Source of the DNA: Pseudomonadales bacterium
Lineage (GTDB): Bacteria; Patescibacteriota; Microgenomatia; UBA1400; PJMF01
Length of the DNA: 64,000 bases
Assembly (NCBI GenBank): GCA_020632265.1
Contig: JACKFW010000001.1
Coordinates: forward strand, 855,272-919,271
Reading direction: 5' to 3'
Below the pieces are notes generated by a model that saw only the letters and a program-made list of their open reading frames with translations, ran no database searches and was not told the origin of the DNA. Below are positions 1-47,560 of the stretch, one piece after another (the first letter of the stretch is position 1; the number at the start of each line of letters is the position of its first letter). The position numbers and the translations under genes were made by a program.

Positions 1-126
1 CTAGATTTAGATAATATGAGAGCACCTAATGATATAAAAGTTTTTCTTCAAGAAGTGTTCCTTCAGGAACAAGCTATTACACGTTTTAACTTACTTATGG
101 ACAAGGTTAGACAAGTCTTCCAATAA
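1..126 (+). CDS. 3' end of an upstream hypothetical gene (partial; enters from the left edge of the window)
   Basis: Frame 1 is open from position 1 to TAA at 124-126 (...NMRAPNDIKVFLQEVFLQEQAITRFNLLMDKVRQVFQ*). No start codon in the window. Same strand as the downstream cassette-like genes. Confidence 0.3.
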   Translation, partial: LDLDNMRAPNDIKVFLQEVFLQEQAITRFNLLMDKVRQVFQ

Positions 127-235
127 ATATTATTTAATTCCTGCAGGTTTGCGACATAATCGAATTTTATTGGAATTCTCTGATATAAGTATGCTTAAAG
201 ATTTTGTGTAACAAAAATACTTTTAATTCACATCT

Positions 236-403
236 ATGTCAGATCATTTTTCCTGGGAGATATACAAAAACGATATGGTTGGAATTGTACCTTTAGGCTA
301 TGTGTATGCTTCAACGTACAGGATTGGTAATATTCATCTAAAAAATAATTATGGACATGGAGTAGCAGAAGCTGATGTATTTATGGCAACTCCAAATTTA
401 TAA
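236..403 (+). CDS. small hypothetical ORF (55 aa) inside the first cassette-like unit
   Basis: ATG at 236 and an in-frame ATG at 275, TAA at 401-403. The stop abuts the first copy of the conserved repeat. No recognisable motif; below the size cutoff of the ORF track. Confidence 0.15.
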   Translation: MSDHFSWEIYKNDMVGIVPLGYVYASTYRIGNIHLKNNYGHGVAEADVFMATPNL

Positions 404-406
404 ATT

Positions 407-433
407 AGGTTCCAACATCCCTCACTAGTCCCC
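407..433 (+). repeat. copy 1 of the conserved intergenic repeat (AGGTTCCAACATCCCTCACTAGTCCCC)
   Basis: Direct comparison with the copies at 1307, 2435, 3347/3403 and 4939. It lies immediately after the stop of the small ORF and about 70 bp upstream of the AadA-like gene. Confidence 0.8.
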
Positions 434-505
434 ACGACATCCTATAGTAGTCAAATATTTTTCGATAGATCATCCGCTTGATATGTTATTTGCTATACTC
501 AAAGT

Positions 506-1279
506 ATGAGAGTTACAAAATATTCAGATATTAATAAAATACTTTCACTTTTAAAAGAGGGTTTGGGCGAAATTCTTGGAAAAAATCTTATTGGTTTGTA
601 TTTAACAGGCTCTCTAACTTATGGTGACTTTGATCGTGGTAGCAGCGATATTGATTTTTTTTCAGTTTTAGATGAAGAATTATCTCCAAAACAGCTTGAG
701 AAAGTAAAGAAACTTCACACCGACATTGGTGAACGATTCCCAGAGTGGCACAAGCGCATTGAGGGGTCTTATGTTACTCAAAAAATGCTGGATAGTACAA
801 AGCCACCTAAACGGCATCGACCATATATAAATGCTGGCAAAATGTGGAGTTTTCCATTTGGGAATGAATGGTTGTTGAATTTACATATATTATATGAGAG
901 TGGAGTGGCCTTGGTTGGAATAAATCCGAAACAACTTATAAGTCCAGTTGATATTATCTCGCTGAGAAAAGCATCTCAAGAAAATTTAATTCAAGAATGG
1001 AAACCAAAATTAACCAATCCAGCACCTTTTCAATCTGCTGATTATGATCGCAATCACCTTCAAGCTTATGCAATTTTAACAATGTGCCGCATTCTTTATA
1101 CTGCTAATAATAAAGATGTTGTTTCAAAAAAGGTTGCCGCTAATTGGGCGGTAAAAATGTATGGTGAGCAATGGAGTGCATTAATTAAAAAGGCTCAGAG
1201 CTGGCATCATGGTGAAAAACTTTTTCTAGAAAATGGAATAAAAAAGTTTATCCAATTTACCATAGATGAGGTGGGATAG
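506..1279 (+). CDS. aminoglycoside nucleotidyltransferase, ANT(3'')/ANT(9) AadA-like (nucleotidyltransferase domain plus a DUF4111-like C-terminal domain)
   Basis: N-terminal pol-beta-type NTase motif LYLTGSLTYGDFDRGSSDIDFFSVL matches AadA LYGSAVDGGLKPHSDIDLLV. Further AadA-like blocks GVALVGINPKQL and KKVAANWAVKMYGEQW (AadA: VALVGPAAEELF; KDVAADWAMERLPAQY). Length 257 aa. Confidence 0.7.
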   Translation: MRVTKYSDINKILSLLKEGLGEILGKNLIGLYLTGSLTYGDFDRGSSDIDFFSVLDEELSPKQLEKVKKLHTDIGERFPEWHKRIEGSYVTQKMLDSTKPPKRHRPYINAGKMWSFPFGNEWLLNLHILYESGVALVGINPKQLISPVDIISLRKASQENLIQEWKPKLTNPAPFQSADYDRNHLQAYAILTMCRILYTANNKDVVSKKVAANWAVKMYGEQWSALIKKAQSWHHGEKLFLENGIKKFIQFTIDEVG

Positions 1280-1306
1280 AGGAAAGTAACTAGGTTATAC
1301 AGAATA

Positions 1307-1375
1307 AGGTTCCAACATCTTTCACCAGTCCCTGGCAATCACCAACTTTTAACTATAAATCAACCTAAATTAAAT
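1307..1375 (+). repeat. copy 2 of the conserved repeat (core AGGTTCCAACATCTTTCACCAGTCCCT plus the extended block CAATCACCAACTTTTAACTATAAATCAACCTAAA)
   Basis: Core 26-mer shared with all copies. The ~40 nt extension is near-identical to copy 3. Confidence 0.8.
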
Positions 1376-1424
1376 ATGATCGAACATCGTCTACTAGTCT
1401 CTTTTTGTCTGATAGAATAATAAT

Positions 1425-1847
1425 ATGAAAAAATCCGTAGTGACTGGAATTTTAGTAAAAAAAGATAATAATGTTCTCCTCGTAAAAAAACCAGATAATG
1501 TAGGTCCATATGCTGGGACATATTTAACTCCTGGTGGAGGGGTAAATACTGGAGAAGCAATCGATGAAGCAGTATTGCGCGAATTGTATGAAGAGACGGG
1601 TGTAAAAGTTTCAAATCTCAAAAGAGTTTCTTTTGATGATGCAGTTACTGAAAATTGGAAAGGTGATGAAACTCACTATATTATGTTATTGTATGCTGCT
1701 GACTATTTATCAGGAGATCTTCAATCTACAGAGGGTGATGATGACAATCTAGAAGTTATTAAATGGTTTTCAGAAGATGAGATAAAAGGAATAAAATTAT
1801 CACCTCCTTTGAAAAAGTTTTTATTAAAGCTTGGTTATAAATTATAG
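1425..1847 (+). CDS. NUDIX hydrolase
   Basis: Nudix box GGGVNTGEAIDEAVLRELYEETGV (GX5EX7REUXEEXGU). Confidence 0.8.
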   Translation: MKKSVVTGILVKKDNNVLLVKKPDNVGPYAGTYLTPGGGVNTGEAIDEAVLRELYEETGVKVSNLKRVSFDDAVTENWKGDETHYIMLLYAADYLSGDLQSTEGDDDNLEVIKWFSEDEIKGIKLSPPLKKFLLKLGYKL

Positions 1848-1857
1848 GTATTAAATT

Positions 1858-2436
1858 ATGGATAAATACTCCAGAGTAGCTAATTTAGTAAAAGAAGTTT
1901 ACGAGAACTCAGAACAATGGTTTGGTCAATGGATGTGGAAACATCATGTTCCAGTTGTGGCAAAAAAAACTGAAGAGCTGTCTGAAAGATTTGGAGCTAA
2001 TCTTGACATAGCTGTGGCGGGAGCTTGGCTCCACGACTTTGGCGATGCTTTTGTTCATCGTAATTCTAAAGAACATCCTTTGGTTACTGAAGAGAAATCC
2101 AAGAAAGTGCTTGAGAAAGCAGGATACAGTACTGAAGAAATCAAAAAAGTACTTGAAGAAGTAATCGCTCCACACTCTTGTAGAGATGATTTTATCCCCA
2201 CTACTATTGAAGGTAAAGTAATGGCTTCAGCAGATGCTTTAGCACACTTTATGACAGATTTTTTTGTTCATTTTACTTGGATGCATCTTCCAGAAAATAA
2301 AACATTTGAAGAATATAGAGATTGGGTTGCAAAGAAAATTGATCACGATTTTCATAAAAAGATATTTTTTGATGAAGTGAGAGAAGAAGTTAGAGACAGA
2401 GTAGCTACGCTAAAAGAAGTATTTGGAGAAAAATAG
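1858..2436 (+). CDS. HD-domain phosphohydrolase
   Basis: H...HD motif (WLHDFGD) and downstream His and Asp residues. Starts 10 bp after the NUDIX gene, so likely co-transcribed with it. TAG stop overlaps the start of repeat copy 3. Confidence 0.6.
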   Translation: MDKYSRVANLVKEVYENSEQWFGQWMWKHHVPVVAKKTEELSERFGANLDIAVAGAWLHDFGDAFVHRNSKEHPLVTEEKSKKVLEKAGYSTEEIKKVLEEVIAPHSCRDDFIPTTIEGKVMASADALAHFMTDFFVHFTWMHLPENKTFEEYRDWVAKKIDHDFHKKIFFDEVREEVRDRVATLKEVFGEK

Positions 2437-2500
2437 GTTCTAACTTCCTTCACCAGTCCTTACAAATCACCAACTTTTACCTATAAATAAATCTAAACAA
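2435..2500 (+). repeat. copy 3 of the conserved repeat (AGGTTCTAACTTCCTTCACCAGTCCTT plus extension AAATCACCAACTTTTACCTATAAATAAATCTAAA)
   Basis: Shares both the core and the extension with copy 2. Confidence 0.8.
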
Positions 2501-2738
2501 CCACAATCACAAAATAATTCATTCGGCACTTAAAATACCGCCTGCGAAATTCCACGCCAACTATTTAGAAACGGTGTGCGAAAAAAGGGGTGCTTGACAG
2601 ATCATATATTCCTAAGAAACCACTTTTACATACAAAGCAACCTTCTGAGATCAGGCTTTATTACAATGCTGGTTAAATCCTGAAATAACATAAAAGACTT
2701 TAGAATAGTTTTTATATAATGTGTGATAATATGTTTCT

Positions 2739-3335
2739 ATGATATTTGAAGTTGGAGACATGAATGAAAAATTAATTGGTAAGTTTGAATTTGCAACAGG
2801 TAATGTTCCTGTGTTGACGCGAGCTCGTCTTATGGCGCAAGTTTTAACTGCAAATATGCAAGATAACGTAGCACAGGCTGTTCAAGCAAGTAGCAAGCTT
2901 ATCAAAGAAGATTTAGATAGGGCTAGTGAAATTCTCAAATATACTGATCCATATAAATTTTTTTCATGGATAGCATTAAACTTGGGAAAAGGTGACCCAA
3001 ATTGTGGCAATTGGATGACATGGTCAATTTTGGTTTTTTTTGGTAATGAAGAACAATTTATTAGGTCATTTGAATATTTAAGACCTATATTAGATAAATA
3101 CAATCCAAACATAGAACCAGTTCATCCAGACTTGCAGTCAATTTTAAATTCTACTGATTATACTGAGCACTTTACCGCAAGAAGAATCCCAAAAGTTCAG
3201 TTCAACGAAAATGAATTATGTTTCGAGCTTGAATGGCCAGGATTAAAAATTGACCTTGTTGGTAACGTCCCAAAAAAAGTTTATTTATCTGATAAAGATA
3301 AAGACACATTTATTTCTTTACAAGAAATCCAGTGA
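2739..3335 (+). CDS. hypothetical protein (198 aa)
   Basis: Intact ORF between two repeat copies. No recognisable motif. Confidence 0.4.
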   Translation: MIFEVGDMNEKLIGKFEFATGNVPVLTRARLMAQVLTANMQDNVAQAVQASSKLIKEDLDRASEILKYTDPYKFFSWIALNLGKGDPNCGNWMTWSILVFFGNEEQFIRSFEYLRPILDKYNPNIEPVHPDLQSILNSTDYTEHFTARRIPKVQFNENELCFELEWPGLKIDLVGNVPKKVYLSDKDKDTFISLQEIQ

Positions 3336-3346
3336 GTTTCAAAATT

Positions 3347-3417
3347 TTCCACTAGTCCCCGGAAATTTTTAAAATATAATCATAGACCAATCTAAATTAG
3401 CTAGGTTCGAACATCCC
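3347..3417 (+). repeat. copy 4 of the conserved repeat, with its two halves swapped and separated by a ~42 bp insert
   Basis: Half B (TTCCACTAGTCCCC) at 3347-3360 comes before half A (AGGTTCGAACATCCC) at 3403-3417. This is the reverse of the order in copies 1-3. Confidence 0.7.
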
Positions 3418-3451
3418 GTACTTGTCTCATTTTACTTGGTATAATTGAGAT

Positions 3452-4300
3452 ATGAAAAAATCAGAACAAAAAAAAGGCACAGACTATATAGGCGTAGGTG
3501 TTGGAGCACTCATTTTTAATGATGAGGGTTTATTATTACTTGCTCTTAGAGGAAAAAAGGCAAAAAACGAACGAGGTAAGTGGGAAATACCTGGCGGCGG
3601 TGTTGAATTTGGCGAAACTATTGAAGAAGCATTGAAGCGAGAAATCAAAGAAGAATTGGATATTGAAATTGAAGTGACAAAAATGCTCCAACTTTGCGAT
3701 CATATTATTGCCGATGAAAAACAACATTGGATTTCACCAACTTATATTTGCAAGAAAGTAAGTGGTGAGCCAAAAATATTGGAGCCAGAAAAGTGTGATC
3801 GCATTGGTTGGTTTAGCATTGAAGAGGCTGAGAAATTACCACTTTCTATTGTTACAAAACATGATATTTCTGTTTTGAAAAAAAGAGATCATCAAGAAAA
3901 TATCGGATGTGCTGTGATAGTTAAAAACAATCAAGATCAAGTTCTTTTAGGTAAAAGAAAAAATGCTTATAGATATGGTTTATATGGACTTCCAGGTGGT
4001 AGAATTGATAAAGACGAAAAAGTTTTGGTTGCTTCCAAAAGAGAGTTGTTGGAAGAAACTGGACTGAAAGCTAGCAATATGAAATATATTGGTGTCGTCA
4101 AAGAATGGCAAGATAGCTATAACTTCATTCACTTTATTCATCTGTGCACAGAGTGGAGAGGTGAGTTGGAGCTTATGGAGCCTGACAAATGTGAAGATTG
4201 GAAGTGGTTCGACTTAGACAATTTGCCTCAGGATATTTTGCCAGGACATTTGCAAGGTATTAAGCTGTTGCAAGATGGAATTGGAATAAGTGATATTTGA
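3452..4300 (+). CDS. tandem-NUDIX hydrolase (two Nudix domains)
   Basis: Two Nudix boxes: GGGVEFGETIEEALKREIKEELDI and PGGRIDKDEKVLVASKRELLEETGL. Confidence 0.75.
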   Translation: MKKSEQKKGTDYIGVGVGALIFNDEGLLLLALRGKKAKNERGKWEIPGGGVEFGETIEEALKREIKEELDIEIEVTKMLQLCDHIIADEKQHWISPTYICKKVSGEPKILEPEKCDRIGWFSIEEAEKLPLSIVTKHDISVLKKRDHQENIGCAVIVKNNQDQVLLGKRKNAYRYGLYGLPGGRIDKDEKVLVASKRELLEETGLKASNMKYIGVVKEWQDSYNFIHFIHLCTEWRGELELMEPDKCEDWKWFDLDNLPQDILPGHLQGIKLLQDGIGISDI

Positions 4301-4312
4301 GATAATTATTAT

Positions 4313-4825
4313 ATGACACAAAGATTATTCGATGAGTTTAACGTTTATCATTCTGAAAATGGTATTGGTCATTTTAGTGGCACCGGCGAGGTAATGGCCA
4401 AATTGTTGCAAGATTTCGAACCCGATAAAAAAACTCTTCAAGGACCAACTTTATCTCTCTATGCCGGAGAAGTTGGAGCAGAAAGGCTATTTGTGACTAT
4501 ATTACAGATTAGAAACAAGAAAATATTGGCAGTTGATCATAATCCACACTTGGTAAGTAAGGATGAAATGACAGATTATTTATTAGGATCAGTCACTGAT
4601 GTAATAGGTAAAATTGAAGCGAATAGTATAGGAATTATTACGATCTTCGGATCCGACGGATCGGTAAATAATGATGATTGGAAAATCATATGGCAAGAAG
4701 CACATAGAGTGTTAAAACCAAATGGACATTTAGTGATTTTTCCCACTGATAATATTTTAACTGTTCCGAGGGGTTTTTCTGTTTTGATTCAAGGTACAAA
4801 TTTCTTAATAGTTAAAAAATTATAA
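4313..4825 (+). CDS. hypothetical protein, possibly a degenerate SAM-methyltransferase fold
   Basis: Motif AHRVLKPNGHLVIF resembles the post-II/III motif of class I methyltransferases. Motif I is not clearly present. Confidence 0.3.
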   Translation: MTQRLFDEFNVYHSENGIGHFSGTGEVMAKLLQDFEPDKKTLQGPTLSLYAGEVGAERLFVTILQIRNKKILAVDHNPHLVSKDEMTDYLLGSVTDVIGKIEANSIGIITIFGSDGSVNNDDWKIIWQEAHRVLKPNGHLVIFPTDNILTVPRGFSVLIQGTNFLIVKKL

Positions 4826-4938
4826 GACTAAAAACTCTCCAAAATCGATTAAAAAATAGCTTCCAATTGTCTATGGCTTTTCTATGATTAATATAACATA
4901 TCAGTTTTTTGGGTAGTTTGGATATTGATACTAAAATA

Positions 4939-4960
4939 AGTTTGAACATCCTTCACTAGT
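4939..4960 (+). repeat. copy 5 of the conserved repeat (AGTTTGAACATCCTTCACTAGT)
   Basis: Degenerate copy that closes the same-strand gene block. The next gene is on the opposite strand. Confidence 0.65.
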
Positions 4961-4989
4961 ATGTTGCTAACATTCTTGAATTATGAAAT

Positions 4990-5664
4990 TTATTTATCTA
5001 AAACAATTCTTGAACCTGAAAAATTGGCAGTTTCGCTACTGCTAGACCTGATTTGAAGAGAGTAGGTGTTATTTCCAGGGTGAAGCTTAAACTTTGGAGA
5101 AGTTTTCCAAGTAGTATTGCTTGAAGAATGAGCAACTTCGGTAATTGCCATGATTGAACCGGTAGTTTTGTTTACTAATCTTGCTGAGGCTTCACCGCTC
5201 ACAATTGAAATTCCTACCTCAAAAACTGCATTAATATATGATGGATAATCATTGCTATCCAAATTGACTTCAACACCAGAGTCAGTCCAAACATTGTTAT
5301 TTGTGCTGGCAGATCCAATATAAATGCTTTGTTTTTGAAATATTTGATTAGCGGAAGTGTTAATTTTAGAATTTAATACTGTATTTTCTAACTCATCTAA
5401 CCTTTTCATAATTCCAGAGACACTTGTTTCAAGAAAGATAATTTTACTATTCAGATTTTTTATTTGAGCAGATAACGAGGCTTGGTTTTGATCAGAGAGG
5501 TTATTTATTATGTTTCCATTTTCGATCAAGATACTAGAATTGCTTTTGGCGCCGTTGATGTTTTCAAGTGAATTATTATTTTGAAATTGTAGAAAAAAAA
5601 GCATTACAATGCAAACAAACATGATAAACAATGACAATACAACAACTTTTCCAAATTTAGACAT
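4990..5664 (-). CDS. hypothetical membrane-anchored protein (N-terminal TM, N/Q-rich coiled region, C-terminal domain)
   Basis: Hydrophobic N-terminus VVVLSLFIMFVCIVMLFFL followed by low-complexity N/S/Q-rich stretches. Confidence 0.45.
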   Translation of the reverse strand: MSKFGKVVVLSLFIMFVCIVMLFFLQFQNNNSLENINGAKSNSSILIENGNIINNLSDQNQASLSAQIKNLNSKIIFLETSVSGIMKRLDELENTVLNSKINTSANQIFQKQSIYIGSASTNNNVWTDSGVEVNLDSNDYPSYINAVFEVGISIVSGEASARLVNKTTGSIMAITEVAHSSSNTTWKTSPKFKLHPGNNTYSLQIRSSSSETANFSGSRIVLDK

Positions 5665-5791
5665 TGGATATATTATAGTAAGAATACAGGTTGGTTAGCA
5701 AACGAGATATACAGTTGGGTTAGCAAAAATGAAAAATTTTTTATAGATATTATCTTATTTTTTTACTAACCGTTATTGTTTCTCCAAAAAT

Positions 5792-6427
5792 TTATTTTAT
5801 TTCATCACCAACCGTCGTTGTCTCTCCATGACCAGGATAGCAGACTGTATCTTTTGGGTAAGACAAAATTTTCCGCAGTGATTTTTCCATGTCCATTGGT
5901 CTTGAATATTTGAAATCTGTTCTTCCAACTGCATTTTTGAATAGAGTATCACCTGTGAAGATGATGTTTGTTTTTCCTTTTGAAACTAAAGCTATGCTTC
6001 CGGGAGTATGTCCGGGAGTTTCGACAATTTCAAGAATGCAGTTACCAAATTCTAGTAATTTTCCCTCATTGATGAATGACAGTTCTGATGGAACTGGCGC
6101 AATTTCATCTGATTTAAGCCAATATTTTGCACTTTCTTGAGCTTTTTTGGCTAAAAAAAGATCATTTTTATGTAAAAATATGGGCAAATCAAAATTTAAT
6201 CTTAATTCTAGTGATCCAAGTACATGATCGAAGTGGGCGTGAGTGAATACCATGCAAAGTGGTTTCAATTTAAGTTCGAGAATTTTTTCACTAATAAAAC
6301 TGCCTTCATCTGCAGGATCAATGATAATTGCTTCAAGGGTATTGGGGCACCATACTAAATAACAATTTGTGTCTAATTCCCCCAAAGTTAAAGTTAATAT
6401 TTCTGGATCAGAAATTTTTTGTATCAT
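5792..6427 (-). CDS. MBL-fold metallo-hydrolase (glyoxalase II-like)
   Basis: THxHxDH motif (FTHAHFDHVLG) and downstream conserved His and Asp residues (PGHTPGS, TGDTLF). Confidence 0.75.
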   Translation of the reverse strand: MIQKISDPEILTLTLGELDTNCYLVWCPNTLEAIIIDPADEGSFISEKILELKLKPLCMVFTHAHFDHVLGSLELRLNFDLPIFLHKNDLFLAKKAQESAKYWLKSDEIAPVPSELSFINEGKLLEFGNCILEIVETPGHTPGSIALVSKGKTNIIFTGDTLFKNAVGRTDFKYSRPMDMEKSLRKILSYPKDTVCYPGHGETTTVGDEIK

Positions 6428-6483
6428 GTTAATTTTGATTATTTTTTTCTTTTTTATTTTATTGAATATTTATTTTTCTTGGG

Positions 6484-7131
6484 TTAGATCATCCAAAGTA
6501 GTGAGAGAATGCCGACAATAAAGTCAATAATTGGAGAAATGAGGTGAGATATAGGAGATCCGGATCCTCCCCAAGGGAAAATTAGTCCAATGAGAACAAA
6601 AGTTCCATAGCGATGCATAAACTGTTCGTATTCTAGAGCAATGCTTTTTGGCAGAAGTGCCTGAGCAATTTTTGATCCATCCAGTGGATTGATTGGGATT
6701 AAATTAAAAATAGCTAACATGACATTAATGAAAATAATTGTGACTAAAATTGTGGCGATTCCACCATTAAGATTCAATAAACCAATAGCTAGAGAGAGGA
6801 TTGTTGCTAAAAATATATTTGATACTGGACCTGCCAAAGCAATTAAAGCGATATCTTTTTTTGGATCTTTTAGGTTGTATGGGTCAAACTGAACGGCTTT
6901 TCCCCAGCCAAAACCAATTAACAAAATGGCAATAGTACCCAATGGGTCTAGATGTGCGCGCGGATCAAGAGTTACTCTACCTTGATATCTTGGAGTAGGA
7001 TCACCTAATTTATCAGCAATGAATGCATGAGCAAATTCATGAATAGTTACAGAAATAATCAACCCAATTGCAATTACAACAAAAGATATTGGATCAGAAA
7101 ATAAAATAGAAAGTAGTCCGATTCTTGACAT
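6484..7131 (-). CDS. M50-family (site-2 protease-like) membrane zinc metalloprotease
   Basis: HExxH (HEFAHAF) inside a TM helix, polytopic membrane profile, and an LDG motif (PLDGSKI). Confidence 0.7.
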   Translation of the reverse strand: MSRIGLLSILFSDPISFVVIAIGLIISVTIHEFAHAFIADKLGDPTPRYQGRVTLDPRAHLDPLGTIAILLIGFGWGKAVQFDPYNLKDPKKDIALIALAGPVSNIFLATILSLAIGLLNLNGGIATILVTIIFINVMLAIFNLIPINPLDGSKIAQALLPKSIALEYEQFMHRYGTFVLIGLIFPWGGSGSPISHLISPIIDFIVGILSLLWMI

Positions 7132-7236
7132 ATAACTAGATTATAAACTATACATTATAATTGTCAGAATTGAAAGTTTCGTATTTGCTAAACTTTAGTC
7201 ATGATAGTATAATCACAACCTGATCGGAAATATATT

Positions 7237-7449
7237 ATGTCAAGTTTTTCTTTTAAACATCGTAGTACAGCTCATATTGGTAATAAAGTTTCTCACGCCA
7301 AAAACAGAAGCAAAAGACCTTTTAAATTTAACTTACACACTGTAACCGTATTCATGAATGGCCAAAAACAGAAATTAAGAGTTCCATCCAAAGTTTTAAA
7401 AGTGCTTAAGAAAACCGGTTTAACCACTCATTGGAAAAAACCTGAATAA
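7237..7449 (+). CDS. rpmB: 50S ribosomal protein L28
   Basis: GNKVSHAKNRSKRPFKFNLH matches the L28 core ([20 protein letters not shown]). Size 70 aa. Confidence 0.7.
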   Translation: MSSFSFKHRSTAHIGNKVSHAKNRSKRPFKFNLHTVTVFMNGQKQKLRVPSKVLKVLKKTGLTTHWKKPE

Positions 7450-7459
7450 ATTTAGATAT

Positions 7460-8434
7460 TTACTCCTTAATTGAGTTTTTTGTTTCAACCCATTTACTGG
7501 GTTTTTTACCTTCAAACTGAATTTTATGAATAATTAATTTTTGAGTTTCTGTTTCAATAGATAAATTGAGTAGTTTCATACGTTTTTCACCTTTAGAAGT
7601 TGGGACGATTGTCCAAAGTTGTGGCCAAGGATTAAAAGCTTTACTGGCTCTTTCTAGAGTAAGTGTGAAAGAATGATTGTGGTTGAGCGCATTAACTAAT
7701 AAATCTGATAAGTGATATCTTTTAATATCACTCTTGGTTGGTTTTTCTCCATTCATTGCCTTTTTTATTAAGATCCAATTAACAAATGCTTGTTTTTTAT
7801 TAAGCATCTTTGCTGTGATTGTTTCTGATTTTTCAGGTTGTGGAGTAGTAATATTTTGATTAGTTGCATATTCAAAAATTTTGTTAGTTAGGTTTTGGCA
7901 GATTAAGTTGAAAGCATGATTATAATAATCTTGACTTGTCCATTCTTGGTTAACTTCAAAATTTTCTTGATAAATTATTTCTCCTTGATCTAAATTTTCG
8001 TTGATGGTCATCAAGGAAATTGCAGAATGTTTATCATTAAATAATATCGAGTATTGGCCCGGTGAACTACCTCTCCATCTTGGAAGTTTCGAAGGGTGAA
8101 CATTTAGAGGAGCAATTTTTGGAAAATCTAATAACCATTTTGGAATTATATACCCAAAATCTACAACTAATAAAAAGTCAGGTTTAATAACCTCATGTAA
8201 TATTTTTTCTTTAATTTGCTCATTAATTTTTTTATCTACATGTATAGTTTGCAAATTATTCTTTTTTGCAAATAAATCTAATGGGTTAGGAATAATCTTT
8301 TGATCTCTGCCAACTGGTTTTGGAGTTGGTGTTAAAATCCAGACCAGTTCGAATTGGTTGTTACTTAATAGAGTTTGTGCACATAGAACAGTTTTCTCAG
8401 TTGTACCCGCAATTGCGACTTTAAATTTATTCAT
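7460..8434 (-). CDS. fmt: methionyl-tRNA formyltransferase
   Basis: Formyltransferase core ...LNVHPSKLPRWRGSSP (Fmt: NVHASLLPRWRGAAP). Sits downstream of def in the usual def-fmt arrangement. Confidence 0.85.
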   Translation of the reverse strand: MNKFKVAIAGTTEKTVLCAQTLLSNNQFELVWILTPTPKPVGRDQKIIPNPLDLFAKKNNLQTIHVDKKINEQIKEKILHEVIKPDFLLVVDFGYIIPKWLLDFPKIAPLNVHPSKLPRWRGSSPGQYSILFNDKHSAISLMTINENLDQGEIIYQENFEVNQEWTSQDYYNHAFNLICQNLTNKIFEYATNQNITTPQPEKSETITAKMLNKKQAFVNWILIKKAMNGEKPTKSDIKRYHLSDLLVNALNHNHSFTLTLERASKAFNPWPQLWTIVPTSKGEKRMKLLNLSIETETQKLIIHKIQFEGKKPSKWVETKNSIKE

Positions 8435-8462
8435 AATTTATTGTGTATTATTTGAATCTTTA

Positions 8463-9011
8463 TTAAAAAAGCTCCAAAAGAGTGGGATCAATCTCTTCGT
8501 ATTTATTATTTGAAAGCTCTTTGTATACAGGAAGATTATATTCTAAAGAATAGTCTGTAAATAATATTCCATCAAGATGATCTATTTCATGTTGAAACAC
8601 TCTTGCATAAAAATTTTCTAATCTTACCTTTTTTTCAGAAAACTTATCTCCATCTATATATTGATACTCGATATCTACCCAAGTATGCCTAGGAATAGGA
8701 CCATAAAGTTCTGGCATTGAAAGACAACCCTCAAGTATGGGGTCATTTTCGTCAGGTCCAAAAGTAAGTTGATTACTTTTTTTAACGATTCTGGGATTAA
8801 TATACGATTGAATTTTATCTATATTTATTGTAAAAATTCTCCAAAGTTTATCAACTTGAGGAGCTGCGAGGCCAACGCCGCGAGGATTTCTTTTACTATT
8901 GAGAGTTTTTTCGAGTTCTGAAATAAAGGACTTTAGCTTTTTATCAACATGAGTGACGAGCCTTGCCTCTTTTCTTAAAGTTGGATGTGGAATAATAATT
9001 ATCTCTTTCAC
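8463..9011 (-). CDS. def: peptide deformylase
   Basis: Three PDF motifs: GVGLAAPQV, EGCLS and HEIDHLDG. Confidence 0.85.
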   Translation of the reverse strand: MKEIIIIPHPTLRKEARLVTHVDKKLKSFISELEKTLNSKRNPRGVGLAAPQVDKLWRIFTINIDKIQSYINPRIVKKSNQLTFGPDENDPILEGCLSMPELYGPIPRHTWVDIEYQYIDGDKFSEKKVRLENFYARVFQHEIDHLDGILFTDYSLEYNLPVYKELSNNKYEEIDPTLLELF

Positions 9012-9018
9012 TTGATTA

Positions 9019-11193
9019 TTATAACATTTCTAACTCAAGAATTTTATTTTGAGCCTCAGTATTATTTGGAGTGATATTTTCGAGAATATATTCTAGCTCA
9101 TTAATTGCTTTTTGAGTCTCACCATTTTCTTCGTACATTGTAGCCAATCTCCATCTTGCTCTCTCATAATTTGGCTTAAGCTGCAAGGCCTTTTCTAACA
9201 ATTTTTGACCTTCTTCTTGATTGCCAGTACTTAAGTTAATTACTGCTTGAGTGTAGTAAAGCTTGGGGTCTGTAGGTGACAATTTAATTGCTTGTTCGAG
9301 AGTATTTTGAGCATCTACCAAAAATTTTTCATCAAGTTGAGCAAGAGTGACAAACATTCTTGATCTAGTTTTATAAAAATTTAAATGCCTGTTATTAAGC
9401 TTCATGGCTTCGTCACTAAGTCTGATTGCTTCGTTTACAAGTGCTGCTGATGAGGTGGCTTGATCTATTTTTGCTAATTCAATGGCTAAGGTTGCATAAT
9501 TATCCGAGAGGGTATCATAATAAAGTGCTTCTCGAGGTGATTTTTTAATTGCTTCAATTTGTTTTTCAATTCCTAGATTAAATTCTCCTGATAAAAAGTA
9601 TGTTTTTCCTTGAGAATATAATTTATCAGCATCCCAGTAATTGTAAATTTTAATAATAATTATCATTAAGGCAATTCCAAGTATGCTTAAAAGCACATAT
9701 TGATCTGTTCCATTTATGGCATTGATTTTTGTGTTATTTGTTTTTTTGGAATTTATTTTTTTGGTTGCTATGCTTGAAAGGTTTTTTGGAGATTGATAGT
9801 TAATAATTACAAATATTCCAAAGAATATATAGGTTAAAACATTAACGGTAACAGTAGAAAAGCCAAAAAAGTTTGAAACAAATAGTCCAGTGATTCCAGC
9901 TAGAATTGCTATTGAAACCAATTTAATACTACTATCTTTGTTTGAGAGGATTGTTTTTAAAACTAATATTCCGAAAATGATCAAGATTAATAAGTAAGTG
10001 GCTAGACCAAAAAAACCTGAGTTTGCTAGGAGATTAATTAATTCATTGTGGGCTTTGTTATATAAAAAATCCCACTCAGAAACATCGTTGTGCTCTCTGG
10101 GTCTATCTAGATAGTAACTATAAGCGAAAGTTTCAACTCCCGATCCAATAATTGGGTATCTTTTCCAAATATTTAGTCCACCCTCCCAAACTATTTTTCT
10201 AATTTCTCCAGAATCTGTTCCACCAATCTCAAGTCTATTAGTAAGTTCTGGGCTAATTTCTGTAGATTCAGTATTATTGCTTTTGTCATCATTTTTGATC
10301 AGCAAATCATTAATTGATGGACTAAGTACGGTTCCAAATATTCCAGAAAGTAATATTAAAGAGGAGAGTATTATGACAACAAATTTGAAGTCTATGTTGA
10401 AATTTGATATTTTCTTATTCTTGATATAAATCAAAATAAATCCAACAAATAATGTTATTAATCCAATCACTAAGCCAATCATTCCAGACCTAGATCTGGT
10501 GAAAATTAATACTGCGAAAAGTAATATAGTTGATAGAGAAAAGAATAACTTTTGCATCAACTTATACTTATTCTGAATTGCTAGAATTCCACTAAGAGGC
10601 AAAAGAGTGATAACATATGCGGCCAACCAGTTTGGTTGTCCAAATGTTGCGAAAACTCTAGTTTTGACGTCCTGTTTCCAGCAACTAGCACTAAAATCTT
10701 TCAATCCTGGCGCAAATAAGCAACTAATTGAGTGACCAAAGTGTTCTAAAATTCCGTAAATTGATACTAAAATTCCAGATGTAAATGTGCTAACTAACAA
10801 TCCTGGCAAATCCTTTTTTTTGACATTGCTTATAAATGCATAATATAGAAGTATGTAGCAGATCATCGAAAGTAAGCCACCATTAAATCTAGAGTAATAG
10901 CCCAGCAATGAAGTTCTTGGGTGAATCGAAAAGATTGTTGAAATAAGTTGGGATACTATAAATAAGATTAAAGGAATATCAAGAGGAGTCTTTTTGATAA
11001 TAATTCTTTTTTCTTGAATCATTCTTAGCAACCAACCAGAAACAATTAAAGTGGTCATTAAATAGACCAAGATCATTTTATTGAATTCAAATAATTCTTC
11101 ATTGATGACGCGAAAGTAAAGAGGTACAGCCAAGAGTAGAAAATTAAATAAGCTTACGATGATATTTCTACTCTGAATTTTCTTTTGGTTCAT
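9019..11193 (-). CDS. polytopic membrane protein with an O-antigen-ligase/Wzy-like domain and a C-terminal TPR repeat region
   Basis: At least 10 predicted TM helices in the N-terminal 470 aa. The C-terminal 250 aa carry TPR-like repeats (..AIKLSPTDPKLYYTQAV.., ..ALQLKPNYERARWRLATMY..). Confidence 0.55.
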   Translation of the reverse strand: MNQKKIQSRNIIVSLFNFLLLAVPLYFRVINEELFEFNKMILVYLMTTLIVSGWLLRMIQEKRIIIKKTPLDIPLILFIVSQLISTIFSIHPRTSLLGYYSRFNGGLLSMICYILLYYAFISNVKKKDLPGLLVSTFTSGILVSIYGILEHFGHSISCLFAPGLKDFSASCWKQDVKTRVFATFGQPNWLAAYVITLLPLSGILAIQNKYKLMQKLFFSLSTILLFAVLIFTRSRSGMIGLVIGLITLFVGFILIYIKNKKISNFNIDFKFVVIILSSLILLSGIFGTVLSPSINDLLIKNDDKSNNTESTEISPELTNRLEIGGTDSGEIRKIVWEGGLNIWKRYPIIGSGVETFAYSYYLDRPREHNDVSEWDFLYNKAHNELINLLANSGFFGLATYLLILIIFGILVLKTILSNKDSSIKLVSIAILAGITGLFVSNFFGFSTVTVNVLTYIFFGIFVIINYQSPKNLSSIATKKINSKKTNNTKINAINGTDQYVLLSILGIALMIIIIKIYNYWDADKLYSQGKTYFLSGEFNLGIEKQIEAIKKSPREALYYDTLSDNYATLAIELAKIDQATSSAALVNEAIRLSDEAMKLNNRHLNFYKTRSRMFVTLAQLDEKFLVDAQNTLEQAIKLSPTDPKLYYTQAVINLSTGNQEEGQKLLEKALQLKPNYERARWRLATMYEENGETQKAINELEYILENITPNNTEAQNKILELEML

Positions 11194-17520: not shown

Positions 17521-19965
17521 ATGAACTTAGTAATTGTTGAATCACCTACGAAAGCTAGAAAATTAACGAAATACTTGGGTAGTGAGTATACAGTCGAAGC
17601 TTCAGTGGGTCATATTAGAGATCTTCCTAAATCGGGACTAAGTGTTGATGTTGAGCATGATTTTGAACCAACTTATGAAATTTCAAAAGACAAAATAAAA
17701 GTTGTCAGTAGATTAAGAGCATTAGCTAGTAAAGCTGAAAAAATTTATTTAGCAACTGATCCTGACCGTGAGGGAGAGGCTATTGGTTGGCATATTAAAT
17801 ATTTATTAGAGTCAGCTAAAGGTAAAAATAAAACCTCAGCAAAGTTTTTTAGAGCAACATTTCATGAAATTACCCAAAGTGCTGTTTTAAAAGCAATTGA
17901 AAACCCCGGTGAGTTAAATATTAATCTAATTGACGCTCAACAAGCTCGTAGAGTTGTGGATAGATTAGTTGGCTATAAATTATCTCCAGTTTTATGGAAA
18001 AAGGTTCGCCGAGGTCTTTCGGCAGGAAGAGTTCAATCTGTAGCGCTACGCTTAATTGTCGATCGTGAACGAGAGATTGAGGTTTTTATTCCAGAGGAGT
18101 ATTGGGAAATAGATGTTGCTATGAGCAAATTAAAACTTGGTAGCTCAAAAGTGTTTGATAAGGATCTAAAAGTTACGGAAAACCTGAATGATGAAATATT
18201 TATTGCAAGAGTTGTTGAAGTTGATGGCAATAAATATGATCCAAAAGTTGAAAAAGATGTTACTCCATTGGTGTCAATATTGCCAACAGCTGACTATGTA
18301 GTTGATTCAATAGAAAAGAAGGAGCGAAAACGCTCTAGTCAACCTCCGTTTACTACTTCAACAATGCAACAAAAAGCTGCAACTATGTTTGGTTATAGTG
18401 GCAAACAAACAATGAGATTAGCTCAGCAATTATATGAAGAGGGTTTAATCACTTATCATCGTACTGACTCTTTTAACCTTTCCAATTCTGCTGTTAGCAT
18501 GGCGAGAGATTTTATCTCAAAGGAATATGGAAATAAGTATCTACCATCAAAGCCAGTATTATTCTCAAATAAAAGCAAGAATGCTCAAGAAGCTCATGAA
18601 GCTATTCGTGTAACCCAAATTGAAATCCGAGCTAAAGATTTGCTGGCTAAAAGTGCAAAATTTAGTCCACAACATGTTAAGTTGTATGACCTAATATGGA
18701 GAAGATTTGTTGCGAGTCAAATGACCAATGGATTATATGATCAAACATCAGTAAAAATTAATTTTGTTAGTAATAAAAAGACCAGCGAAGTAAAAAAAGG
18801 AGTTCTTAAAACTTCTGGATCTGTATTAAAGTTTGATGGTTGGATGAAGTTATTCCCAAATAGGGAAGATTCATTGTTACCCGAACTTGCTGAAAAACAA
18901 GATTTGAATTATCTAGACCAAGCAGCTGCTCAAAAATTTACTCAACCTCCTGCCAGATATAACGATGCTTCATTAATAAAAGAGCTTGAGAAAAGAGGAG
19001 TTGGAAGACCAAGCACTTATGCCTCTATTATTTCTGTTATTATCGATCGGGGTTATATTGAGAGAATACAAAAAAAGTTTTTTGCATCAAATGTCGGTAT
19101 GACTGTAAGTGACTTTTTATTACAACATTTTCCTCAAGTAATGGATTATGAATTCACGGCAGAAATGGAGGAAGATTTAGATAGAATTTCTAGAGGTGAA
19201 AAACAATGGAGAAAAGTTGTTGGTGATTTTTATAAACCTCTAGAAAAGAAGATTGAGAATGTAACTGAGAAGGCTGAGAGAACTCAAATTCCTGTAGAAA
19301 AGACTGGAGAAAAATGTCCAGATTGTTCTGCTGAACATGGTGGTGAAATTGTTATTAGGTCTGGAAAATTTGGCAAGTTTATGAGTTGCAATCGTTTTCC
19401 AGAATGTAAATATACCAAAAACATTGTGGAAACAGTTGAAGATGTTGTTTGTCCTTTATGCCAAAAAGGCGAAGTTACAATGAAGAATACCAGATGGGGA
19501 AAGCCATTTTTCGGTTGTGGAAATTATCCAAAATGCAATTGGGCATCTTGGAAGAAGCCTGAAAAGGGCGAGGTAATGACAAAAGAAGAATGGAAAGTTC
19601 TTCAAGAGGCAAGAGAAGAGAGAAAGAAAAAATGGGCCGAAAGGAAAAGTGGAAAATCCACCACCGCGCTGTCAAAAAAAGCAATTAAACAGCCTAAAAA
19701 ACCCGCCAAATTTGTAAATAAACTTGCCGAAGTCGCAAACAAACCTGCTAAAGTCGCAAACAAACCTGCTAAAATTGCAAACAAACCTGCCAAAGATACG
19801 AAAGAACCTGATGGCGAAGTTGTAAAAATGCCGACTAAAGTCAAGAAAAGATCAACAAAAATTAAGAAAAAACCTACCAAAGTCGCAAACAAACCTGCTA
19901 AAGATATAAAAGAATCTGCTGGCGAAGTTGTAAAAAAAACTAAAACTAAGGCTACTAAAAAGTAA
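17521..19965 (+). CDS. topA: DNA topoisomerase I with C-terminal zinc-ribbon domains and a Lys-rich repetitive tail
   Basis: Toprim N-terminus (LVIVESPTKARKL, DPDREGE), catalytic-Tyr region (YHRTDS), several Cys4 ribbons (CPDC...C..C; CPLC...C..C), and a tail with KPAKVANKPAK repeats. Confidence 0.9.
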   Translation: MNLVIVESPTKARKLTKYLGSEYTVEASVGHIRDLPKSGLSVDVEHDFEPTYEISKDKIKVVSRLRALASKAEKIYLATDPDREGEAIGWHIKYLLESAKGKNKTSAKFFRATFHEITQSAVLKAIENPGELNINLIDAQQARRVVDRLVGYKLSPVLWKKVRRGLSAGRVQSVALRLIVDREREIEVFIPEEYWEIDVAMSKLKLGSSKVFDKDLKVTENLNDEIFIARVVEVDGNKYDPKVEKDVTPLVSILPTADYVVDSIEKKERKRSSQPPFTTSTMQQKAATMFGYSGKQTMRLAQQLYEEGLITYHRTDSFNLSNSAVSMARDFISKEYGNKYLPSKPVLFSNKSKNAQEAHEAIRVTQIEIRAKDLLAKSAKFSPQHVKLYDLIWRRFVASQMTNGLYDQTSVKINFVSNKKTSEVKKGVLKTSGSVLKFDGWMKLFPNREDSLLPELAEKQDLNYLDQAAAQKFTQPPARYNDASLIKELEKRGVGRPSTYASIISVIIDRGYIERIQKKFFASNVGMTVSDFLLQHFPQVMDYEFTAEMEEDLDRISRGEKQWRKVVGDFYKPLEKKIENVTEKAERTQIPVEKTGEKCPDCSAEHGGEIVIRSGKFGKFMSCNRFPECKYTKNIVETVEDVVCPLCQKGEVTMKNTRWGKPFFGCGNYPKCNWASWKKPEKGEVMTKEEWKVLQEAREERKKKWAERKSGKSTTALSKKAIKQPKKPAKFVNKLAEVANKPAKVANKPAKIANKPAKDTKEPDGEVVKMPTKVKKRSTKIKKKPTKVANKPAKDIKESAGEVVKKTKTKATKK
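19700..19945 (+). repeat. coding tandem repeat: 21-bp AAACCTGCTAAAGTCGCAAAC units plus a ~50-bp duplication, encoding the Lys/Ala/Pro-rich tail of TopA
   Basis: Direct repeats are visible in the nucleotide sequence at 19720-19800 and 19870-19940. Confidence 0.7.
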
Positions 19966-26900: not shown

Positions 26901-27911
26901 TTATTCAAATCTAGGTTTTGTAGAGTCGAGTGGGTCTGTTGCAATTATTGTGCTGGGGCCATCCTTATCTGAGCGAGAAAGTTGAGTTTTATCATCTACT
27001 TTAGTTTCACCAATTTCTATTGTAGATTGAGCAAATGTTTGATAAAGTGTTCGAGCAAGAAGTCCATCTGCGACGTTTCTCTTAGAAAGATTAAACTCAG
27101 CTTTTAACATTGTTAGCCTACTTATAAGCACTTGGTTACATAATATATTTACTAAGGCAGCAAAGTTCGATGCAGTTTTCTTTGTTAATTGAGGGATTTG
27201 GTCGCTTGTAAGCATTTCAACAATTAATTGGTTTTCTTTTTCAAAGTCATTCTTTCCGCCATTTTTAAACATTCTGTGATGATATTTTGCTATGGCAACT
27301 GCCATTGCTTGTTCATGTGTGTAGCCAAGAGATATAGCTAATTGATTAAACCATAGAATATATGTTTCTTTAAAATCGGGGTCGGTTTCAGTTAGCTGAA
27401 TTAAATTATAAAAAACATCAGCAATTTCTGATATTACTTTTGCAATAGCTGCATTGTCTTCGTTAGTCTTACCATCTGTATAATCTGAGATGGCACCGAT
27501 CACCTCATCTCTTTCAGGAGGTTTGAAATATTCGGCGGGCTTAGTACGAACCGGATCGCCTGTGAATTGAAAGATAAATCTCAAATCATTAGTCTTACCA
27601 TCACCTGAAAGAAAAAGGATCTTGGTTTCAGCTCGAAATGGTAACTTTGTTCCATATAGTTTAGCTTCTTCTTGCAGAAATTCAGTTGTCAGTAATCTCC
27701 ATCCAATTTTTTCATTTGGCTTAAGATTTAACTCTTGTGAGTCATTAGTGAGAACAATTTCAATAACTCTTTGCGTTGATTGTGCTTTAATTAAGCGAGT
27801 TGTTTCTATTCCTGCGGCATGAAAAGTATCTAGGGCCTTTTGTAAAGTCATCATTGTGGTAGCAGCTAATAAGTGCTCCAAACTTATATTTAGTGTATCT
27901 TCATTTACCAT
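26901..27911 (-). CDS. hypothetical protein with a C-terminal MazG-like all-alpha NTP-pyrophosphohydrolase-like region
   Basis: EDNAAIAKVISEIADVFYNLIQL...FKETYILWFNQLAISLGYTHEQAMAVAIAKYHHR resembles the MazG EExGD..fyL..LA..GxdlE core. The N-terminal 150 aa is unassigned. Confidence 0.35.
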   Translation of the reverse strand: MVNEDTLNISLEHLLAATTMMTLQKALDTFHAAGIETTRLIKAQSTQRVIEIVLTNDSQELNLKPNEKIGWRLLTTEFLQEEAKLYGTKLPFRAETKILFLSGDGKTNDLRFIFQFTGDPVRTKPAEYFKPPERDEVIGAISDYTDGKTNEDNAAIAKVISEIADVFYNLIQLTETDPDFKETYILWFNQLAISLGYTHEQAMAVAIAKYHHRMFKNGGKNDFEKENQLIVEMLTSDQIPQLTKKTASNFAALVNILCNQVLISRLTMLKAEFNLSKRNVADGLLARTLYQTFAQSTIEIGETKVDDKTQLSRSDKDGPSTIIATDPLDSTKPRFE

Positions 27912-46330: not shown

Positions 46331-47560
46331 TTAATTGTTGAGAAACTTTGCAGACAATTTATTTCTGACTTTGTATTGGATACTGAAGAAAACGGCAACT
46401 AGCATGACTACTCCAACTAGAAAATAAAAAGATTGGACTAGTTGTCGTTCAATCATAAATCCAAAAAACATTGCCACCAAAACATACGGTAACTGTATAA
46501 AAAATTGCAGGGTTGAGATGACAGTTGATCGATATTTTGAGTCGATATGTTTATTAATGATTGTTGATCTCCAAGGTTCCGATAATTCTCCGGTGACGAT
46601 TAATAATAGAAAAATAATAGCTCCGATGATAAGTGATTCACTAAAAAATCCAGCCAATAACCATCCAAATGAACCAAGGACTGTAAGTAAAATTATGCCT
46701 TTATTATCACCCAAGAGCATTTTGATTTTATCTAGATAAAAAATTGAGATTGAGCTCACAATCATAACCCCACTCACGAGATAACTGAGTGTTTCACCAT
46801 TATAAGAAAATTGTTCTCCCATAAAAATTCTCACAATACCTGTGCTCCACATATAGAAAGAAGCCAGAATGGCGATCAGTACCGGTAAATATTTTTTAAT
46901 TTCTGGGTGTAAAAGCTCTCTTAAGCCGGTTTTATTTTGTTTGATGAACTGTTGCCAAGAAAATTTGAAAGTATCCACTGTTGGTTCGGTAAATTGGAAA
47001 CTTAAAATTAATGCAATCAACATAAATATTGTAGTTGCTAGCCAGGGCAAGTAAATATTGTAGCGCCATAAGAATCCTCCGATTAGGGCAGAACCAATTG
47101 TAACGGCTGGAAATATCGAGCCAGTTCTTGCCGCAACAAGATCGTAATATTTTTCAGTTTTTGTTTCTACCATCGAGTCATAAGCCAAGGCTTCAAATGA
47201 TCCCGAAATCATTGCAAAGCCTGCAACACTAATGATATTTCCAAAAATAATAAACCAAGTTGAGATTGGGGTTAACATAAAACTACCAATTCCCACAGTT
47301 TGCATCAGTAAGCCAATTTGCACTGTAATTTTTTTCCCTAGCAAATCTGCGATTGCACCAGATGGAATTTCAAGTAGCATGCCAATTCCAAATGAAACTG
47401 ATTCTAAAATACCCATTTGTGCTGGTGAAATAAATTCAAGTACAAAAAAAAGCCAGTTGGCGATTATAAAAAAAGCTAGCGAGAATATTTTAACCCAGTA
47501 GTAAACAGCTATATTTTTTACTCCAAAACTGGGAAAAATATTATTAAATAATTTTGACAT
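46331..47560 (-). CDS. MFS-family transporter
   Basis: Twelve predicted TM helices and the MFS loop motif (GAIADLLGKK). Confidence 0.7.
   Translation of the reverse strand: MSKLFNNIFPSFGVKNIAVYYWVKIFSLAFFIIANWLFFVLEFISPAQMGILESVSFGIGMLLEIPSGAIADLLGKKITVQIGLLMQTVGIGSFMLTPISTWFIIFGNIISVAGFAMISGSFEALAYDSMVETKTEKYYDLVAARTGSIFPAVTIGSALIGGFLWRYNIYLPWLATTIFMLIALILSFQFTEPTVDTFKFSWQQFIKQNKTGLRELLHPEIKKYLPVLIAILASFYMWSTGIVRIFMGEQFSYNGETLSYLVSGVMIVSSISIFYLDKIKMLLGDNKGIILLTVLGSFGWLLAGFFSESLIIGAIIFLLLIVTGELSEPWRSTIINKHIDSKYRSTVISTLQFFIQLPYVLVAMFFGFMIERQLVQSFYFLVGVVMLVAVFFSIQYKVRNKLSAKFLNN

Follow-up and report, generated by a model that had tools for sequence, protein, structure and literature searches.

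An AadA-fold nucleotidyltransferase gene bounded by direct repeats in a genome that appears to belong to the Candidate Phyla Radiation

The gene considered here lies at positions 506 to 1279 of a 64,000-nucleotide stretch of contig JACKFW010000001.1 (assembly GCA_020632265.1), which we call the window throughout and in which the gene sits inside an array of direct repeats. It is an ATG-to-TAG open reading frame (ORF) of 257 amino acids on the + strand, as are the parts of the gene and of its array described below, and its product is identical to NCBI MCB9813555.1, a 'DUF4111 domain-containing protein' from a 1.08-Mb contig. A first-pass annotation made from the DNA letters had read it as an AadA-like aminoglycoside nucleotidyltransferase (ANT) of the ANT(3'')/(9) type, acquired as cargo by a genome resembling those of the Candidate Phyla Radiation (CPR). 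The three sequence blocks quoted in support of that reading, LYLTGSLTYGDFDRGSSDIDFF, VALVG and AANWA, occur exactly as given in the translation, the last two within GVALVG and VAANWAV, and the view of the genome held up as well. GC content of the window is 33%, the housekeeping genes are typical of a small genome, and the DnaB encoded at 54178-55500 is 89% identical to a Candidatus Woesebacteria protein, 87% to one from "Patescibacteria group bacterium" and 74% to one from Pacebacteria. Because DnaB is 87 to 89% identical to Patescibacteria and Candidatus Woesebacteria proteins, the host appears to be a Woesebacteria-like CPR bacterium and the NCBI source name, 'Pseudomonadales bacterium', appears to be a mislabel.

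Membership of the encoded protein in the AadA superfamily is secure. By Pfam, AlphaFold and Foldseek, positions 506..1279 encode an AadA-fold nucleotidyltransferase (NTase) with an N-terminal pol-beta NTase domain and a C-terminal AadA_C (DUF4111) helical domain. Profile searches with these two domains, which the first-pass annotation had suggested as a check, placed both above their gathering thresholds and in the order of the superfamily architecture, NTP_transf_2 over residues 17-76 (E=5.2e-6, 27.2 bits, cut-off 21) and AadA_C over residues 184-238 (E=2.1e-13, 50.8 bits, cut-off 22.2). An alignment of 44 relatives served as input for the AlphaFold (AF2) model, which has a mean predicted local distance difference test score of 95.4 and a predicted template modelling score of 0.89, and for all conservation counts given below. 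When the model was submitted to Foldseek, AadA/ANT(3'')(9) structures were matched at TM-scores of 0.74-0.80, with 5g4a best at 0.80, followed by ANT(9) structures at 0.72-0.73, while the next fold, ANT(4'), reached only 0.49. The AadA enzymes of Salmonella enterica and the integron AadA1 (4cs6, 5g4a, 7uy4; TM-scores 0.76-0.80) have this two-domain architecture in common with our protein, although identity to solved AadA/ANT structures in the Foldseek alignments is only 18-22%. Among solved structures the best sequence match is ANT(9), represented by the Enterococcus faecalis enzyme (6sxj, 6xxq) and Spw: the family profile found 6sxj at E=3.6e-14 and the AadA-type 7uy4 at E=2.2e-11. Comparison of the family with four ANT sequences by hhalign gave a probability of 99.3% (E=1.4e-20). 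Likeness to AadA is thus far beyond chance across Pfam, profile, hhalign and Foldseek matches, and the outcome that the first-pass annotation had named as its refutation, a DUF4111-free protein of a GlnE-like or minimal nucleotidyltransferase (MNT) clade, is not what was found, given 50.8 bits on AadA_C and an AadA fold at a TM-score of 0.80.

The catalytic half of the enzyme is preserved. After the residue numbering of the ANT references had been checked, they were aligned with the family by HMMER, MAFFT and hhalign, and in all three alignments S36, S47, D48, D50, E86, E121, R195 and K208 pair with AadA S36, S46, D47, D49, E87, D130, R192 and K205; each is invariant or nearly so in the 44 family members. 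The motif G35-S36 ... S47-D48-I49-D50, encoded at 608..655, corresponds through AadA Ser-36, Ser-46, Asp-47 and Asp-49 to ligands of the ATP phosphates and Mg2+. Glu-86 (761..763), invariant in the family, aligns with the catalytic base, Glu-87 in AadA and Glu-86 in ANT(9), so that in the latter even the position number is the same, as are the ATP ligands. In the AadA_C core (residues 184-238, 1055..1219), R195 and K208 are the equivalents of Arg-192 and Lys-205, and H184 and Y188 are invariant in the family. The roles of the AadA residues, as ATP phosphate and Mg2+ ligands and as catalytic base, are those given in PMC6065190. As in AadA, the protein has a GS...DxD motif for Mg/ATP, a catalytic Glu, an acidic residue that binds ribose, and Arg and Lys as phosphate ligands in the C-terminal domain. 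AadA Y231 pairs with a position that varies in the family (H234).

The acceptor side is another matter. Trp-112 of AadA (Trp-111 in ANT(9)) stacks on the ring that is modified and was described as a functional determinant by Stern et al. 2018 (PMC6065190), who found that streptomycin additionally requires Trp-173 and a two-residue insertion at 177-178. The structure of ANT(9) with spectinomycin confirms roles for Trp-111, which stacks on the A ring of the drug, and for Glu-86, Asp-180 and Asn-183. HMMER, MAFFT and hhalign agree that the 7-residue segment E-x-Q-F-G-E-W containing Trp-112 is deleted in our family, so neither Trp-112 of AadA nor Trp-111 of ANT(9) has an equivalent. Where the segment would sit, the AF2 model has a beta-hairpin (residues 105-116), and W114, which lies near the Trp-112 site, occurs in only 20 of the 44 relatives. 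Invariant W165 does align with AadA Trp-173, followed in the MAFFT alignment by an 11-residue insertion without AadA counterpart, and the alpha5-alpha6 loop is 11 residues longer than in AadA. The equivalents of AadA Asp-182 and His-185 depend on the method: L185 and Y188 by MAFFT, which aligns the helix without gaps, in keeping with a predicted helix at 182-201; A178 and D181 by hhalign; position 178 and H184 by HMMER. No alignment reproduces both residues, so with the methods in disagreement over AadA 178-185 neither is securely conserved. In the helix-consistent alignment, Asp-180 and Asn-183 of ANT(9) likewise correspond to Leu-185 and Tyr-188. The protein is also basic, with an isoelectric point (pI) of 9.15 against a family median of 6.1 and values of 4.5-5.5 for four ANTs. 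The family has an invariant, largely aromatic set of its own, W81, Y89, R105, Y107, W122, W165, H184, Y188 and W233, which suggests one conserved acceptor.

Curated models agree with this picture. In the NCBIfam collection used by AMRFinder, the protein scored 61.9 bits on ANT(9) (NF012212, cut-off 340), 31.9 on ANT(3'')-I (NF012157, cut-off 375), 33.8 on ANT(3'')-II (NF033220, cut-off 400) and 43 on PRK13746 (cut-off 193), and so lies under every curated ANT(9) and ANT(3'') cut-off. ORF 506-1279 is not callable as an ANT(3'') or ANT(9) and should not be scored as aadA; with these scores and the deleted Trp-112 segment, the enzyme identity offered by the first-pass annotation is not supported, while its caveat that the function was open was correct. 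Among characterised enzymes, identity is no lower than 38% between ANT(9)s and 43% between ANT(3'')(9)s (PMC6065190). Stern et al. 2018 (PMC6065190) also described a 'third class' of NTP_transf_2 plus DUF4111 proteins without ANT(3'')/ANT(9) activity, such as Campylobacter jejuni Q4VR96, and remarked that proteins retaining only the N-terminal ATP/Mg residues "may perform a different function." Our protein matches the published signature of that class, in that the N-terminal ATP/Mg residues and the architecture are kept and Trp-112 is gone, with the other drug contacts ambiguous in the alignments, and its clade adds the invariant pocket residues listed above.

The clade itself is large. A word-index search returned 611 relatives, the best 63% identical and most 48-60%, and an exhaustive profile search gave 425 clusters (formed at 50% identity) below an E-value of 1e-30 and 2145 below 1e-10. 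Because family members score 165-380 bits on the profile and ANT structures only 30-56, we regard the clade as distinct from ANT(3'')/ANT(9), and its sequences place it as an uncharacterised sister clade. Relatives at about 50% identity are spread over at least six phyla; GTDB species representatives with relatives at 35-53% identity include Patescibacteria/Saccharibacteria, Chloroflexota, Legionellales/Coxiellaceae and other Proteobacteria, Verrucomicrobia, Parachlamydiales and Paenibacillus. Searches of IMG/VR viral contigs found no relative, and carriage by phage was rejected on that ground. Within the collection of papers searched, nothing relevant turned up on DUF4111 function or on cassette arrays in CPR or Saccharibacteria.

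The position of the gene inside a repeat-delimited array, as first proposed, is confirmed. A repeat with the core GGTTCNAACATCNNTCACYAGTC is present in 6-7 copies, all on the + strand and confined to 403-4963, with starts at 403, 1303, 1372, 2431, 3330, 3399 and 4934. No shuffled sequence reached this count, and the repeat does not occur in the rest of the window, which comprises 59 kb and 55 genes. The copies mark off five units: an ORF remnant (236-403), the AadA-like gene, a NUDIX + HD pair, a hypothetical gene for 198 amino acids, and a double-NUDIX + methyltransferase pair. The left boundary of the AadA-like cassette is the 36-nucleotide copy AATTAGGTTCCAACATCCCTCACTAGTCCCCACGACA at 403..439, which starts at the stop codon of the remnant, and the right boundary is the copy at 1303..1339, 24 nucleotides past the stop codon of the gene and 87% identical to the copy at 403. 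A second, degenerate copy (1372..1401) ends 11 nucleotides ahead of the -10 hexamer of the NUDIX + HD cassette, and the remaining copies at 2431-2460, 3330-3359, 3399-3428 and 4934-4963 bound the hypothetical and the double-NUDIX + methyltransferase cassettes, with 4963 the end of the array. The leftmost unit in view is a degraded cassette: ORF 236-403 (55 amino acids) is only the C-terminal remnant of a 285-residue protein, which is intact in L095 and L090, two metagenome contigs with the same repeat (66% identity). Both NUDIX cassettes (1425-1847 and 3452-4300), of which one encodes two NUDIX domains in tandem, have matches in PADLOC to PDC-S07, a candidate defence family (E=1.6e-12 and 1.8e-35), and in one relative (P0185) a NUDIX domain is fused to the AadA-like family member.

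Each complete cassette may also carry its own promoter. Upstream of our gene, a putative extended -10 element, TGCTATACT, read from the sequence at 491..499, ends 6 nucleotides ahead of the ATG, and the first genes of all four complete units (506, 1425, 2739 and 3452) have TGnTAnnnT ending 6 nucleotides before the ATG; the second genes do not. From this box we infer a leaderless transcript, without a Shine-Dalgarno sequence. Similar -10-like boxes 6-8 nucleotides before start codons are common genome-wide (for example at 8463-9011, 26901-27911 and 46331-47560) and a Shine-Dalgarno-like motif precedes only 12 of 61 window genes, a pattern that suggests that leaderless transcription predominates in the host. 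A two-hexamer sigma-70 scan did not find 1-5200 enriched, nor did it pick out a TG-extended -10 ahead of the cassette starts. Two other readings of the repeat were set aside. As a remnant of a tRNA or tmRNA 3' end it has no T-arm or acceptor fit, and ARAGORN and Rfam find only a tRNA-Leu at 55983; as a general terminator or promoter it would not be missing from the other 59 kb, and sigma-70 and terminator scans showed no enrichment. Elsewhere in the window, a 21-nucleotide tandem repeat at 19675-19941, in the 3' part of topA (17521-19965), codes for a repetitive C-terminal tail rich in Lys, Ala and Pro.

Similar arrays recur in related contigs, where the repeats delimit modular, exchangeable cassettes. 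When JGI metagenomes were scanned by exact repeat pattern, the repeat of the window was found in 14 contigs (L087-L100), always co-oriented and in up to nine copies within 7.4 kb. The copies share the 36-nucleotide consensus AAATAGGTTCNAACATCCTTCACTAGTCCCTGCAAA, whose TAG very often terminates the ORF that precedes it. A two-gene toxin-antitoxin (TA)-like cassette is common to L094, L097 and L095, where it lies between different neighbours and where homology begins at the upstream repeat and stops just past the downstream one. Fic/DOC genes also occur in arrays with this repeat. In other CPR lineages, homologs of the AadA-like gene lie between direct repeats at five loci: L003, L044 (5943-6807), L102 (408-1333), L105 (1117-4057) and L107 (2147-2912). 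The repeat of L107, AAGTTCCAACATCGTCTC, belongs to the same sequence family as that of the window. In L003, from a saccharibacterium (4789-11014), a 60-nucleotide repeat in at least nine copies bounds GNAT, epimerase, M23 and HAD cassettes, and an IS1595 transposase adjoins. A permutation test for flanking repeats placed 5 of 65 loci above the null maximum; other homologs have ordinary contexts, as in L101.

The array resembles integrons in some respects and differs from them in others. Like integron cassettes, the units of the window are unidirectional, short, accessory and of one or two genes, with a recurring site that often overlaps a stop codon; like them too, the related arrays carry TA-like cassettes and have cassettes in common, with homology bounded by the repeats. 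The repeat differs from attC in being a 36-nucleotide, direct, non-palindromic sequence without R''/R' cores or a stable hairpin. Integron cassettes are usually promoterless and depend on IntI, attI and Pc, whereas those of the window have their own putative extended -10 boxes, and the gene at 506-1279, unlike aadA, has no attC attached. A search for attC core pairs (RYYYAAC...GTTRRRY, 35-130 nucleotides apart) on both strands of 1-5000 found none, and three intergenic regions folded on both strands formed no hairpin, their folding being no stronger than that of shuffled controls (z from -1.45 to +1.25). No tyrosine-recombinase motif or integron integrase was found in the ORFs of the window, including the 59 kb downstream of the array, or in those of L087-L102, L003 and L044, although a recombinase may be encoded upstream of position 1 of the window; the only transposases in Pfam scans of the neighbours were of IS1595 and IS30 type. 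With no hairpin, no R''/R' cores and no tyrosine-recombinase motif in the DNA searched, we rejected a canonical integron. The cassette boundaries would fit either a site-specific process acting at the repeat or homologous recombination from one repeat to another.

The first-pass claim of cargo is supported: cassette modularity and patchy distribution favour acquisition, while the integron features looked for (attC cores, hairpin, integrase motif) were not found. Comparison of GC content and codon usage with flanking core genes, another suggested check, did not help it. GC (0.351), GC3 (0.256) and codon score (0.175) of the gene give z = 0.55, 0.37 and -0.59 against 55 ORFs outside the array; these values, all within ±0.6 standard deviations of background, are indistinguishable from core genes, give no evidence of recent foreign origin and make the compositional test uninformative. 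Because composition is silent, the case for acquisition rests on modularity and distribution. The closest homolog is just 63% identical, though genomes with DnaB identities of 85-91% are well sampled, and because of this and of the patchy distribution we take the gene to be accessory, as judged from its sequence relatives.

Genes found with other family members, in fusions or as neighbours, bear on what the enzyme may do. Fusion partners within the family include an APH(6)/hydroxyurea-kinase-like domain, GNAT (twice), AAA_18 and an MBL-fold domain. A ribosomal-protection ABC-F gene lies upstream on the same strand in seven Chloroflexota loci (L058, L063, L072, L073, L074, L075 and L081), and is the immediate neighbour of the family gene in no fewer than four of them (L058, L063, L072 and L074); at the two loci scanned with NF000355, L058 and L063, the ABC-F scored 412-413 bits (cut-off 380). 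The NTase of L073 is a fusion duplicated in tandem, and in L063 an 89-nucleotide stretch from the ABC-F 3' end is duplicated so as to flank the family gene. Both the L031 homolog and one carried by a conjugative plasmid of Legionella pneumophila have MsbA-like exporters and GNATs at their flanks, class-C beta-lactamase-like hydrolase genes lie downstream in six loci, and an AAA_18 gene follows in L107 and L108. On the Legionella plasmid (L086; NZ_CP011106.1, 55040-61780) the homolog is 31% identical and stands in a same-strand run of two ABC transporter genes, the NTase, a GrpB/GNAT gene and a GNAT gene. A conserved operon partner was sought over 80 loci and rejected, the partners being specific to sub-clades.

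Taken together, these observations favour, by a modest margin over even chances, an O-nucleotidyltransferase acting on a small molecule, an antibiotic or xenobiotic, as the best-supported function. In the proposed mechanism, an active, monomer-sized enzyme would bind ATP-Mg2+ between its two domains, and Glu-86, as catalytic base, would help transfer AMP or another NMP to a hydroxyl of the small molecule. Because the acceptor pocket appears to be built differently from those of the ANTs and the clade is distinct from them, an acceptor other than streptomycin or spectinomycin seems most likely, and because relatives are partnered with ABC-F, exporter, GNAT and kinase genes or domains, a ribosome-targeting compound is plausible. 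The gene would by itself make up a complete, leaderless cassette, driven by an extended -10 promoter within the unit and carried as accessory cargo in an array that is not an integron.

Several observations weigh against this proposal. H184 could be the equivalent of His-185, as the alignment around AadA 178-185 differs between the three methods. GC, GC3 and codon usage match those of flanking core genes, with no sign of foreign origin. No neighbour is universally conserved over the 80 loci, the ABC-F-linked members are just 35-37% identical to our protein and come from a different phylum, and we know of no member of the clade with a known substrate. NUDIX and tyrosine-phosphatase-like fusions within the family, and the basic pI, would be compatible as well with a nucleotide metabolite or a macromolecule as acceptor, and the 62%-identical homolog in L101 sits between the core genes gltX and era, outside any array. 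Those fusions and the core-gene context also speak for the main rival, a housekeeping or metabolic nucleotidyltransferase without a role in antibiotic resistance, whose acceptor would be a metabolite, cofactor, protein or RNA end of the cell itself; the NUDIX and HD hydrolase cassettes that adjoin the gene in the window, together with its basic product and unremarkable composition, could be read in the same way. A housekeeping gene would not be expected to have so patchy a distribution or to be absent from sampled close relatives, nor does the rival account for the company of Fic/DOC, TA-like and other accessory genes in the arrays or for the recurrent ribosomal-protection ABC-F, exporter, GNAT and beta-lactamase-like neighbours, and we consider it unlikely, if worth keeping in view.

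A genuine but divergent ANT(9) or ANT(3'')(9), adenylylating spectinomycin and/or streptomycin and giving resistance, is more doubtful still. AadA and ANT(9) do top both the structural and the sequence matches, the catalytic base is conserved, as are the ATP ligands, W165 lies opposite AadA Trp-173, HMMER places invariant H184 opposite His-185, and one family member is fused to a domain of the APH(6) (streptomycin-kinase-like) family. Set against these are scores of 61.9 bits where ANT(9) demands 340 and 31.9 where ANT(3'')-I demands 375, 18-22% identity to solved ANTs where characterised enzymes keep at least 38% or 43% among themselves, the Trp-112 segment deleted in all three alignments, Ala or Leu opposite Asp-182, an alpha5-alpha6 loop longer by 11 residues, and a pI of 9.15 rather than 4.5-5.5; such proteins also fall within the class to which Stern et al. 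(PMC6065190) ascribe a possibly different function. The enzyme is quite unlikely to confer streptomycin or spectinomycin resistance. Least credible is an MNT-type antitoxin or anti-phage NTase (MNT-HEPN, or Hailong/CBASS-like). It could draw on weak matches of the N-terminal 70 residues to PADLOC PDC-S09 (E=1.9e-7), Pfam AbiEii (E=0.006) and Polbeta, on the MNT and HalB structures far down the Foldseek list, on TA modules in related arrays and on an MNT-HepT pair just upstream of the L105 homolog. These matches are limited to the generic NTase core and stay under curated cut-offs, the protein has an AadA_C domain and 257 residues where minimal NTases have about 100-140, its gene lies between an ORF remnant and a NUDIX gene rather than beside a HEPN/HepT partner, and TM-scores to MNT/HalB of 0.26-0.40 compare with 0.80 to AadA.

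The account that we find probable as a whole remains that of an AadA-fold nucleotidyltransferase from an uncharacterised clade, with an antibiotic or xenobiotic as its acceptor, encoded by a cassette in a repeat-bounded array. A bolder version is possible but speculative. In it, lineage-specific direct repeats of 36-60 nucleotides, many of which provide a stop codon, define a new attC-independent cassette system of the CPR, whose leaderless cassettes with promoters of their own are shuffled between genomes by a recombinase; the protein would represent a new class of antibiotic nucleotidyltransferase, directed, as the ABC-F, exporter, GNAT and kinase partners suggest, at some ribosome-targeting drug that is neither streptomycin nor spectinomycin.

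Homology-based resistome surveys could be tempted to count this gene as aadA-like resistance in the CPR, and the evidence is against doing so. The partners of the sister clade, including ABC-F proteins, exporters and fusions to GNAT and kinase domains, nevertheless point to a drug-modifying activity worth testing. The gene is already annotated, and its context is of more consequence than the gene: the most interesting aspect is a non-attC cassette array that recurs in the CPR, together with the resistance-type partners of the family. CPR genomes are thought to be poor in classical mobile elements, and repeat-bounded modular arrays with differing repeats in several CPR lineages would be a route of gene exchange in ultra-small bacteria.

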